Origin: a virus
Lineage: Duplodnaviria; Heunggongvirae; Uroviricota; Caudoviricetes
Virus record (IMG/VR): IMGVR_UViG_2617271087_000004
Strand: one strand, 5' to 3'
DNA: 64,000 nucleotides
The translations under genes were made by a program, and so were the position numbers. Positions 32,281-34,974 of this stretch are shown one piece after another (within the stretch, counting starts at the first letter, position 1; every line of letters begins with the position of its first letter). The notes beneath the pieces were generated by a model. That model made no database searches and had not been told where the DNA came from. It saw only the letters and a list, made by a program, of their open reading frames with translations.

Positions 32281-32741
32281 ACTTGCCGGGTACGTCTCCG
32301 GCGAGGGCTTCCACCTCCGTATGCTTTTCGGCGCACCGCGCCCTGGCTGCAATTCGGTAACAGGGGATGCATAACCCTGGCTTCCAGCGTGATTAGCGCT
32401 TTCAGCATGACGGGATATACCCGTAAATTCGTGGAACTGTACCCAAAGTGCTGTTAAGCACCGCTGTTACGCTGAAAAGAAGACGCAACAGGAAAGGACG
32501 CTGACCAACAGATGGCCCCTTCTCGTTCATCTGGTTAATCACACCAGCGCCCTTACCTGTTGTGCCTCCCCGTTCCCTAATACACAGACGGGGACACTCT
32601 GCGGTCGATTTTTTGACGGGGGACGACTCATACCCCGTGGCGTCTGGCTTCTTAGGCCGCTACCATCATCAGATCATCGTTTGCATTTACTTTAATGGTC
32701 AGTTTCTAAACCGCCGCAAAGTCGCTAACCATGACGAAAAC

Positions 32742-32771
32742 CCTGAAAAAAACGCCCACCCGAAGATGGGC
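32742..32771 (-). terminator. intrinsic terminator/attenuator candidate in the operon leader upstream of the tRNAs
   Basis: Minus-strand GCCCATC-TTCG-GGTGGGC hairpin followed by GTTTTTTTC; an 8-codon mini-ORF follows. Confidence 0.5.
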
Positions 32772-32948
32772 AAACTGGAAGCTCGTAACGCACTTCGGTG
32801 TTGCCACTTAGGCGTATGGTCAACCTGGCAACTCGGCGTCATGAGGGGGAAGGAGTCACTACCCCGCCATACTTGCCGCCGCGCCTGTCGCGGCTAACAG
32901 CTAAATCGCTCTATAAATCACGATTCATTGAGGCGATATTACACTAAT

Positions 32949-32965
32949 AAATTTATTAGAGCAAT
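32949..32965 (-). promoter_or_regulatory. C1 operator (exact consensus) overlapping a minus-strand promoter (-35 TTGCTC, -10 TAATAT)
   Basis: aaatttattagagcaat = exact reverse complement of ATTGCTCTAATAAATTT. Confidence 0.75.
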
Positions 32966-34974
32966 ATTGCTATAACGTCATGAGCAACACCTCGAGTGTC
33001 CCCCTTACAAGACACAGAACGTCTGGCAAAAAGAGGTTCCACTCTGAAGCCACTGTCCTGATAAAGTTCTCTGATGTTTGGCGCGCCACTGTTAGTAATG
33101 AGAACCTTTGCACCTCGGCGATGAGCATCCGTCAACAGAGACGCCAGGCGTTTTTGCTCTTCAAACTTAAAGTCATGACCGGAATAGTTCGTGAATCCCT
33201 CTGTATTTGGGAGCGGTTCATACGGCGGATCGCAAAAGATGACATCTCCTTCTCCGGCAGCTTCAATCACCGCAGCAAAATCACCACATACAAACTCAGA
33301 ACGCCCTTCCGCACCAAGGAAGGCTTCCATCTCCTGCAATGGGAAATACGGAGTTTTATACTTCCCATAACCGACATTGAACTCACCGGCTTGGTTGTAA
33401 CGCGTCAATCCGTTAAAACAATGTCGGTTCAGGAACAAAAACGCCGCTGCGCGATGTAAATCATCATAGACTTGTTTGTTAAACGCATTCCGTACTGCCA
33501 GGTATCCTTCCTGCGTGTTGTAGTCCTGGAAGAAACGATGTGCCAGAGTGATAAGTGAATGCGCCTCGCGTTGCAGAGTCTTGTAAAAGTTAATCAGGTC
33601 AGCATTCACATCATTTAGCAGATTTTCCTGGTATCCGGCATTCATGAAGACAGCTCCGCCACCAACGAAAGGCTCAATCAGGCGCTTCCCTTCTGGCAAA
33701 TAGCGAAAGATTTGTTCCAGAACACCAAATTTTCCACCAGCCCATTTGAATATGGACCGTTCGAATTCTGCCGCTGGTTTAACTTTTCGCTCTTTTGTTT
33801 CACTCCCTTCCTTCTGCCGACATGCAGCCTTGGCAATCCGATCGCCAATCCAGCGCATTACTGGTATCGCCATACTATTGCCGATCGCTTTGTAACGCGG
33901 TCCGTCAGCTGCAAGCATCGCGGCCTCTTCTTCGCTCAAATCAGGATAGTTTTTGCGAAGGTATGCCAGTTCATCTGAAGAAACTTTTTTACGCTTTTCC
34001 GTAGGGATCAATGTATGTCCATCAGGAAAACCTTGCAGCCTTTCACATTCGACAGGGATAAGACGGCGCATTCTACCGTCGACGAGCAATACAATTGGTG
34101 CTTCATGGTTACATGTCAAAGTTGGTGCCGAATTATCGGTTTTTATCTCAGCCCCTCCTTGCCCATGTGCCATGGCAACTATGTTTGTATCATCGCAAGA
34201 TCTGATAGCGATGTTTGAAGTATATCTGGTAGTTTCCTTCCCCTCGCCTCTGCTCGGCGCAATATTCCGGCGCACGCCTTCGAACTCAAAAAGTACCGTT
34301 GCGGGATCGAGGTCTGTTCGAGCACTTGCGACAACAAACACGCGTCGGCGTCGTTGTGCCACTCCGAAGTATTGGGCATCAAGGATTCTCCAGGCCACCT
34401 TTCGCTGCGGTCCATAAATACAACCACACTGCGGCCACTTTGGAGCATGGCAACCGGTTTTGCCATCCCACCGCCAGAACGCGTTACTTTTTCCTGATTC
34501 AGGTCGATCACCTGGTTCAAATGGCGCATCTTCTCCAGCCAATCCGGCAAGGAAACATCCGAAGGCGTTATCTGCCGATGACAGGACTCCTGGGACATTT
34601 TCCCAGACGATAACTGTCGGTTTGAGGAAGGACTCAGACCGTTTGTCGTCAATTGCATTTGCAAGCTCCACATACTTCAAAGTTAGCGCGCCGCGTTCAT
34701 CATCAAGCCCACCACGTAAGCCCGCGATACTGAATGCCTGACAAGGCGTACCCCCGACGAGCACATCAGGGGATTCGATTTCCCCAGCCAGGACTTTTTT
34801 GGCAAGTTTTGTCATGTCGCCAAGGTTGGCGACATGGGGCCAGCGGTGCGCAAGAACGGCAGATGGAAAAGGCTCGATTTCAGCAAACCACGCCGGACGC
34901 ATACCCAACGGTTCCCAGGCAATACTCGCGGCTTCAATTCCACTGCAAACAGATCCATAGCACAGCTCTTTCAC
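32956..34974 (-). CDS. dmt: bifunctional DNA methyltransferase: N-terminal C5-cytosine MTase domain, C-terminal Dam-like N6-adenine MTase domain
   Basis: N-terminus has [24 protein letters not shown] motifs; C-terminus has KWAGGK...EPFVGGG and DPPY. Confidence 0.9.

Follow-up and report, generated by a model that had tools for sequence, protein, structure and literature searches.

A conserved pseudoknotted RNA domain followed by an intrinsic terminator in the leader of the C1-controlled ban operon of a P7/P1-type phage

INTRODUCTION

A described locus that is homologous to the one analyzed here is that of DicF, a 53-nt RNA generated by termination in the long untranslated ydfC-dicB spacer and by RNase E processing (PMC9438474). 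When the dicBF operon is driven from Plac, read-through past the DicF terminator is enough for DicB toxicity (PMC5069750). The dicBF literature treats the spacer merely as a long untranslated region or "3′UTR" (PMC9438474; PMC5069750). A comparable case is StxS, described as a small RNA (sRNA) arising from early termination of the Stx phage PR′ transcript, where read-through expresses the downstream phage genes (PMC7547250). Here, we analyzed a 64,000-nt stretch of DNA from a Caudoviricetes phage of the P7/P1 type (IMG/VR record IMGVR_UViG_2617271087_000004; hereafter, the window), focusing on the region upstream of its first tRNA genes. This locus is the C1-controlled ban promoter (Op72ab/P1ban) together with its untranslated leader. 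We describe in this leader a conserved pseudoknotted RNA domain of ~100 nt that is followed by an intrinsic terminator. The same two-part cassette, with the domain first and a hairpin and U-run behind it, is present in the early-left operons of lambdoid prophages.

RESULTS

The first ~184 nt of the transcript expected from P1ban comprise a short 5′ hairpin, the pseudoknotted domain, a linker of ~25 nt, and the intrinsic terminator. The domain occupies positions 32795–32894 on the minus strand, to which all features of the leader belong unless stated otherwise. Copies of the domain were gathered from phage records, IMG/VR contigs, and GTDB (one genome per species), and a covariance model, R1, was built from 20 diverse copies. 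R1 had a sole match in the window (32894–32795; 98 bits, E about 1e-19) and found one copy per locus in 62 loci. The modeled fold starts with helix P0, in which 32893–32889 pair with 32883–32879, followed by the closing helix P1 (32878–32875 with 32837–32834). Two stem-loops, SL1 (32865–32862 with 32849–32846) and SL2 (32832–32826 with 32806–32800), complete the nested part. The pseudoknot forms between 32872–32867 (GUAUGG) and the SL2 loop at 32819–32814 (CCAUAC).

In the alignment fitted to R1, 96.3% of the cells pair, compared to 34%–51% in slid registers, and compensatory double changes were found in 11 of the 30 modeled pairs, including a pseudoknot pair; both figures come from an alignment that was fitted to the model itself. 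Shuffled alignments gave 2.9 ± 1.2 such pairs, with none of 500 reaching 11, and slid registers gave 1–3. An alignment made with MAFFT only pointed in the same direction (double changes in 6 pairs, a number that 1 of 500 shuffles reached), and unguided RNAalifold recovered the nested helices. The lineages differ in sequence at several of these helices. SL1 reads CGGGG/CCCCG, CTGGG/CCCAG (phage P1), CCAGGTG/CACCTGG, CAGGG/CCCTG, or CCCGGG/CCCGGG, and SL2 reads GGGTTGTCA/TGACAACCC, GTTGCCA/TGGCAAC (window), or GGGTAACCA/TGGTTACCC (Izhakiella). The closing helix P1 is CGGC/GCCG in the window and CGGU/ACCG elsewhere. The pseudoknot GUAUGG/CCAUAC changes to GCAUGG/CCAUGC in phage P1, with G·U intermediates, so that one pair runs through the series U-A, U-G, and C-G. 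Most lambdoid copies are closed by an additional outer helix (GTTGTGG/CCACAAC) that also covaries, which suggests a self-contained RNA domain. The invariance of the loop is partly a matter of ascertainment, because the sampling of copies required the SL2 loop motif. The domain is a real structured RNA with clear covariation support. It was assigned to the sense strand because its orientation with respect to the operon is constant, a sense-strand terminator lies behind the domain, and the domain is known to be included in the DicF precursor.

The Rfam 15 scan of the leader, at gathering thresholds and at E ≤ 10, contained neither the domain nor any riboswitch or leader family; it returned the tRNAs and weak, hairpin-shaped noise (mir-like, tmRNA_permuted, CcsR1, and RyhB). 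Our literature search found no description of the domain, and 14-mers from it were not found in the papers searched. The RfaH ops element (GGCGGTAG; non-template core plus T6) was also considered as an identity for part of the domain. Lambdoid copies read GGCGGTAAG at this place and the window reads GGCGGCAAG. This reading was rejected because the ops-like string GGCGGTA is GGCGGCA in the window and because the position covaries as an RNA pair, being paired in helix P1 as U-A in 55 sequences and as C-G in 2.

Behind the domain, the linker (GAAGUGCGUUACGAGCUUCCAGUUU; 32772–32794), delimited by alignment to the Qin and O157 loci, leads into the intrinsic terminator at 32746–32771. A preliminary description of this DNA, made from the sequence alone, had noted a GC hairpin with a U-run here, and the terminator scan found it at or near the same coordinates. 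It has a G+C-rich 7-bp stem (GCCCAUC/GGUGGGC; 32771–32765 with 32760–32754), a UUCG loop, and then G followed by U7 (32752–32746). The hairpin energy is −12.8 kcal/mol, with a stem counted as 7–8 bp, and the hairpin is conserved in P1, P7, and the related phage D6. It is a strong intrinsic terminator.

The pairing of domain and terminator is a general feature of the copies. A hairpin with a T-run was found within 40–122 nt behind the domain in 79 of 82 distinct contexts, compared to 29% of control windows. Two of the three remaining contexts have hairpins too long for the scan, and the third is a decayed Shigella copy. The domain is far better conserved than the hairpin that follows it. As many as 33 different terminator 3′ halves were found, belonging to DicF and its variants, to other GGCGG...CCGCC-U5 hairpins, and to the minimal UUCG hairpin of P1/P7. 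Long terminator hairpins stand behind the domain in L133, L007, L142, L144, and L145 (Serratia, Salmonella phage F1055, Trabulsiella, Erwinia, and Izhakiella). The hairpins of these five lineages carry a conserved AGGAG...(A/G)TGTTCT(A/G)CCG, which resembles a ribosome-binding site with a start codon. This segment is probably an RNA structure and not a peptide, because the lineages do not agree in its reading frame with respect to the conserved nucleotides downstream. In vB_Apl-pPE4 (L006, ~2595–2760), the sRNA-type hairpin-terminator module is tandemly duplicated, and CACAACAACCCATGTTGATTACCTTTTGGCGGG... occurs twice.

Phage D6 has an identical terminator and shares the sequence of the short open reading frame (ORF) beyond it and the distal leader (93.8% identity from window position 32774 onward). 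R1 gave no match in D6, where unrelated sequence replaces the domain. The domain and the terminator are thus separable modules. The replacement in D6 (L146, 2254–3003) is ~750 nt of unrelated non-coding sequence, which takes the place of Op72/Pban and the domain and holds a long hairpin (AAGAAAGAAGCCGACT...AGTCGGCTTCTTTCTT) directly ahead of the terminator that the phages share. The mosaic parts meet at the 5′ base of this terminator's stem.

We favor, with a probability of roughly 0.4, the reading that the leader is a promoter-proximal leader-RNA cassette that ends at its own terminator and whose read-through supplies the tRNAs and ban. Once C1 repression is lifted, most polymerases starting from Pban would stop at the U-run and release a discrete leader RNA of ~180–185 nt. 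The domain would be the functional body of this RNA, whose 3′ end would consist of the terminator hairpin and the U7 tail. The fraction reading through would make the tRNAs, the downstream hairpin array, and ban, and the terminator would in this way split the output of Pban between a leader RNA and an operon message. The domain may bind a component of the host that is conserved, because its invariant unpaired nucleotides extend across genera and unrelated phage types. The short ORF beyond the U-run would have no part in this mechanism. We liken the logic of the cassette to that of DicF at the ydfC-dicB spacer and of StxS at PR′.

Several points weigh against this reading. No transcript data for the leader were found in the literature; two P1vir RNA-seq papers give gene-level values only. 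Action of the domain in trans is purely hypothetical. RNase E separates DicF from the domain in lambdoid prophages, where the domain fragment may or may not be stable. The comparison of G·U with A·C (25 vs. 30 outside one pair) is insufficient alone to assign the strand. The occurrence of the same terminator without the domain in D6 means that the terminator does not need the domain. In addition, established P1 genetics puts ban, 3.2 kb further downstream, under the control of Op72. Expression of ban from Op72 requires substantial read-through of a strong-looking terminator, which is explained more directly if the domain is an antiterminator.

The main alternative, which we consider somewhat less likely, is that the domain is a protein-independent, cis-acting antiterminator RNA, similar in action to put of phage HK022 but built on another structural plan. 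On emerging from the host RNA polymerase, the domain would bind to it during elongation and make it resistant to the following terminator and also to Rho along the untranslated RNA (>1.7 kb) that precedes the first ORF. Transcripts would in this way reach the tRNAs and ban or, in lambdoid prophages, dicB and the recombination genes. In line with this, the domain always follows an early promoter under repressor control and directly precedes an intrinsic terminator. In P1/P7, the domain starts at about +36 from P1ban and the terminator comes next, whereas phage Ayreon has a PL-type promoter, a small ORF, the domain, the terminator, and genes in this order, with the domain ~300 nt from the promoter. 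Sense-strand genes are present beyond the terminator in all eight annotated loci from which gene orientation was taken (P1, P7, Qin, O157, mEp460, pPE4, F1055, and Ayreon). PHROG matches among the proteins around the domain revealed no N-type antiterminator, including in the domain-bearing PL operons, and no constant protein neighbor, with none in P1/P7. Independent exchange of the domain and the terminator, as seen in D6 and in the 33 terminator types, is expected of a processive modifier, and loop nucleotides that do not vary between genera and phage types fit an interaction with a conserved machine of the host. The synthesis of DicB through the DicF terminator in the Plac-driven operon is likewise consistent with antitermination (PMC5069750).

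The region between the terminator and the tRNAs has no convincing promoter, which also favors an antiterminator. Beyond P1ban, just one promoter-like site was found on the minus strand (32673–32702; CTGACC, 18 nt, GATGAT; 8/12), ~45 nt past the terminator. It is weak and poorly conserved, and its −35 hexamer is further degraded in D6 (CCGACC). Because the terminator precedes the tRNAs and ban and only this weak site follows P1ban, some control of read-through beyond C1 is plausible.

Other results speak against antitermination by the domain. No relation to put was detected: R1 with filters off found nothing at putL or putR, its best match at the HK022 locus lay elsewhere (8.6 bits, E = 3.4), and Smith-Waterman alignments of the domain with put were not significant, since 62–911 of 1000 shuffles scored at least as high. 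Membership in the put family was therefore rejected. A scan of viral contigs for more put copies returned almost only near-identical copies of putR plus chance matches. The 53-nt DicF arises by termination right behind the domain, so antitermination would be at best partial (PMC9438474). The D6 terminator, standing without the domain, counts against the antiterminator as well. Further sense-strand terminators downstream were not enriched in Ayreon and mEp460, where their number was near the shuffle expectation in a scan that is insensitive and misses long-loop terminators. We put forward only tentatively that the domain could be the first known case of a second class of antiterminator RNAs that work without a protein, unrelated to put in structure and far more widespread.

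The preliminary description had interpreted the terminator, together with an 8-codon ORF (MVSDFAAV) behind it, as an attenuator of read-through and as a second control layer beyond C1. The ORF exists (32732–32706) and is identical in P1, P7, and D6, but we judged that it is not a functional part of the leader. It begins 14 nt past the U-run, and its translation therefore cannot influence the forming of that terminator. No clear Shine-Dalgarno sequence precedes it, and a P7-like contig (L138) has TAT in place of its TAG stop codon. Its occurrence is at chance level, because the transcribed strand of the leader holds 4 ATG-initiated ORFs of at least 8 codons, compared to 4.9 ± 1.7 in shuffled sequences. 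A leader-peptide attenuator of the trp type is thus not supported, as the ORF lies downstream of the terminator and mutually exclusive folds were not predicted. What stands of the proposed control layer is the strong terminator between the promoter and the tRNAs and ban; the attenuator form is not supported.

A more general version of this idea, in which the domain serves as a sensor of a ligand, tRNA, or protein (or the ORF as a leader peptide) and decides whether the terminator forms, is very unlikely in our assessment. A conserved structured domain with a variable terminator is the generic layout of a riboswitch, and the 3′ tail CCCCGCC of some lambdoid copies could, by eye, pair with the 5′ arm of a GGCGG terminator. 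However, the terminator stem has a pair probability of 0.96–0.97 in the ensemble of the 184-nt leader, and the terminator hairpin is present in both the minimum free energy and centroid structures. With a stem probability of 0.97, no competing antiterminator fold is predicted, and folding of the truncated leader gave no specific partner for the 5′ arm of the terminator. The variable spacing between the domain and the U-run (40–122 nt) and the free swapping of terminators are hard to reconcile with an overlapping expression platform, and the absence of a match to any Rfam riboswitch or leader family also argues against a sensor.

A 246-nt leader query containing the domain was searched against 5,426 complete E. 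coli genomes and matched 4,439 of them, at 1–9 places per genome. The chromosomal matches span ~98 nt (window about 32893–32796) at ~82% identity and sit in the ydfC-dicB spacer of Qin-type prophages, ending ~25 nt ahead of DicF. The domain is further present in 61 phage records and, among GTDB genomes, in the genera Escherichia, Shigella, Citrobacter, Serratia, Trabulsiella, Erwinia, and Izhakiella. The window carries the P7 type of the domain, 100% identical to P7 and 82% to P1.

The P1 record labels this part of the leader as a "dicF-like region". The DicF model (Rfam RF00039; gathering threshold 48 bits) had no match within 31400–33000 at E ≤ 10 and none at the P1 locus, whereas the positive controls scored 76.7 bits (Qin) and 75.0 bits (O157). 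Identity of the leader element with DicF was therefore rejected, as the similarity covers only the sequence upstream of DicF. The label is misleading: what P1 and P7 have in common with these prophages is the sequence upstream of DicF, without DicF. Beyond this common part, the minimal UUCG hairpin of P1/P7 takes the position of DicF, and the linker is the positional equivalent of the single-stranded 5′ part of DicF, with no similarity to it. The duplex energy of the P7-type 3′ RNA with ftsZ was worse than that of shuffled sequences (z +1.1) by a crude method in which the DicF control itself reached only z −1.0, so that pairing with ftsZ gained no support in a comparison of low power.

A further explanation is that nothing regulatory exists beyond C1, the hairpin being a leaky terminator or insulator of the uhr-hrdC-dmt operon and the domain a functionless passenger from a lambdoid dicF locus. 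The hairpin is indeed the first terminator past the dmt stop codon, ~185 nt away. The leaders of the P1 family are also mosaic, since the P1 and P7 domains are 82% identical compared to ~97% for the 1,001-nt query overall, and D6 has no domain. However, the differences between the P1-type and P7-type domains are compensatory substitutions that keep every helix and the pseudoknot, which points to continued purifying selection on the fold within P1-like phages. Moreover, every P1/P7-like record spanning this region has kept the domain. We therefore regard a mere passenger as improbable.

The assignment of the window to a P7/P1-type phage is based on a 1-kb query (1,001 nt) at the locus, which is 98.4% identical to P7 and 96.9% to P1. 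Identity over aligned blocks is 96.9%–99.5% with P1 and 97.5%–98.4% with P7, the latter for long blocks. Elsewhere in the window, Rfam matches were found to the sok antitoxin RNA (114.9 bits) and to the C4 antisense RNA with its a1/b1 targets in the immI region (70 and 55.5 bits), at 48647–48821 and 52270–52476 on the minus strand; they are consistent with a phage-plasmid of the P1/P7 type. On the minus strand, dmt is followed by two tRNA genes, a third tRNA gene, and ban, which encodes a DnaB-type helicase. The operator pair, the −35 and −10 hexamers, the site at the dmt end, the terminator, the tRNA-Asn/tRNA-Thr pair, and ban are all collinear with P1.

The C1 operator and the promoter at the start of the leader, which the preliminary description had located correctly, are present in the P1 annotation and were thus excluded as novel features, a point that the earlier reader had missed. 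The P1 record AF234172 (also NC_005856) annotates the homologous divalent C1 operator Obanab (former Op72ab), a sigma-70 promoter P1ban, a predicted P2ban, the "dicF-like region", tRNA-Asn, tRNA-Thr, and, further on, trnI and ban. The operator half-sites are annotated in P7 too. The operator, the promoter, and the "dicF-like region" are therefore prior knowledge, as is the repression of P1ban by C1 and Bof, which is published P1 genetics as carried in AF234172. In the window, the half-site Obana (former Op72a; 32949–32965) is an exact 17-mer (ATTGCTCTAATAAATTT) with no mismatch to the operator consensus. It overlaps the dmt stop codon and contains the −35 hexamer of P1ban. The half-site Obanb (former Op72b; 32938–32954, plus strand) has 2 mismatches to the consensus and is inverted relative to Obana, which it overlaps, so that both together form the divalent operator. 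In the whole window, 15 operator-like sites (≤3 mismatches) were found, compared to 0.33 expected.

Promoter P1ban (32936–32964) consists of TTGCTC (32964–32959), a 17-nt spacer, and TAATAT (32941–32936), as described earlier. These hexamers have 7 of 12 consensus matches in a relaxed hexamer scan, were missed by the standard scan, and alone are not above chance. Their position coincides exactly with that of P1ban in AF234172, and the credibility of the promoter derives from this annotation, because of the low consensus match and the failure of the standard scan. Judging from the −10 position, transcription would start near 32929.

The leader downstream of the terminator contains a long near-perfect hairpin (ACAACAGGUAAGGG...CCUUUCCUGUUG; 32477–32571), of the same type as the hairpins after tRNA-Thr. 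It folds with −48.8 kcal/mol (z −5.4), and none of 200 shuffled sequences folded as well. D6 shows, by eye, a compensatory change from C-G to T-A in it. Weak matches to miRNA-precursor-like Rfam families at this place reflect the hairpin shape. We consider it a candidate processing site of the RNase III type. The first gene product after the leader is tRNA-Asn (GTT; 32205–32280), which was found by ARAGORN and matched the Rfam tRNA model with 74.5 bits. It starts at 32280, 466 nt past the U-run, in agreement with the distance of ~460 nt given previously. It is followed by tRNA-Thr (TGT; 32127–32202; ARAGORN, 72.9 bits).

The name "tRNA-upl-plp-tRNA-ban operon", used in the preliminary description, does not hold, because plp and upl of P1 are annotated on the opposite strand and plp is split in the window by a 173-bp insertion (31861–32033), an extra hairpin module relative to P1. 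The P1 plp ORF starts with TTG and overlaps tRNA-Thr in antisense, with its C-terminal "RRDSNP" lying in the tRNA overlap. Both ORFs are probably spurious. The ~930 nt after tRNA-Thr (31199–32126, minus strand), over which P1 plp and upl are annotated in antisense, form an array of very stable long hairpins bounded by CACAACAGGTAAGGG...CCCTTACCGTTGTGATGAATGC, including those at 32036–32130 (−41.6 kcal/mol, z −5.7) and 31596–31722 (−54.2 kcal/mol, z −5.8). These hairpins may be processing sites of the RNase III type or decayed tRNA-like genes. The first of them after tRNA-Thr (32036–32130) contains a perfect T-arm-like AGGGTTCGAATCCCT, and at the equivalent place D6 (L146, 4107–4193) has an 87-nt tRNA-Ser(UGA)-like gene that was flagged as odd by its annotators.

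Another conserved non-coding motif, ACGGG-N-TCATAWCCC, occurs twice in the window (31665–31679 and 31386–31400, minus strand), compared to 0.05 expected. The same motif was found within a long hairpin right after the domain and terminator in lambdoid PL operons (GACGGGCTCATAACCCAATCC; L232 ~7165–7265, L007, L139, and L144). Its core GGG-CUCAUAA-CCC resembles the anticodon stem-loop of the initiator tRNA-fMet, with three G-C pairs and a CAU loop. ARAGORN detected no tRNA at the motif sites of the window or at the scanned lambdoid loci (L232, L003, L007, and L144). The motif could be a tRNA remnant or a mimic or decoy of an anticodon arm.

Further downstream, P1 tciA/tciB/tciC (terB in P7) are replaced at 30154–31198 on the minus strand by a 78-aa ORF and a 275-aa SPFH/Band-7 protein (Pfam PF01145, E = 1e-30). 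This replacement is a cargo swap within the ban operon.

DISCUSSION

The operator, the promoter, and the terminator add nothing new to the 2004 annotation of P1. The main point of interest is the domain, which the earlier reader had overlooked and which is among the most widespread phage-derived non-coding elements in E. coli. P1 and P7 offer the cleanest and simplest system for it: DicF is missing, the terminator is minimal, and the domain stands by itself at the 5′ end of a transcript under repressor control. Acting in trans, the domain would be a newly recognized early RNA of these phages that targets a conserved component of the host. Acting in cis, it would represent a new class of RNA antiterminators and explain both the expression of ban, which lies 3.2 kb away behind a strong terminator and >1.7 kb of untranslated RNA, and that of dicB. 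Such an antiterminator would carry the early transcription of P1-type phages and of dicF-type lambdoid prophages through terminators and long untranslated stretches. Either outcome would revise the understanding of DicF biogenesis.

Compared with known systems, the domain resembles HK022 put in its location shortly after an early phage promoter and ahead of terminators, and in being a compact multi-helix RNA with conserved unpaired nucleotides and no dedicated phage protein nearby (PMC9378689). It differs from put, a two-stem V shape of ~70 nt that occurs as a left and right pair, in its length of ~100 nt, its closing helix and pseudoknot, and its single copy per phage. The two have no detectable homology in sequence or structure, and antitermination by the domain is putative. 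The suppression of termination by put acts in cis and is lost upon mutation of the zinc-binding domain in the β′ subunit of RNA polymerase.

With leader-peptide attenuators and transcriptional riboswitches, the locus shares an intrinsic terminator in an untranslated leader before structural genes. Unlike in these systems, the ORF lies past the terminator, no mutually exclusive fold is predicted, the spacing is variable, and the terminators are exchangeable. The likeness to StxS consists in a promoter-proximal short RNA that ends at an intrinsic terminator (PMC7547250). There is no homology between the two; read-through at StxS is driven by Q, and its late promoter is active constitutively in lysogens, in contrast to the C1-repressed Pban.

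A close relative is the Qin-type dicF locus, that is, the ydfC 3′UTR or pre-DicF part of the dicBF operon, which has the same ~100-nt domain with ~82% identity and the same helices. In both loci, a linker and then a Rho-independent terminator hairpin come after the domain, and both belong to early repressor-controlled operons with genes beyond the terminator. They share further downstream non-coding modules as well, namely GTGATG..TGAATGC and the ACGGGNTCATAWCCC hairpins. Unlike the Qin-type locus, the window has no DicF, its hairpin is a minimal 7-bp UUCG stem, and tRNA genes follow. Its cassette lies at the 5′ end of the transcript (~+36) and not after three small genes.

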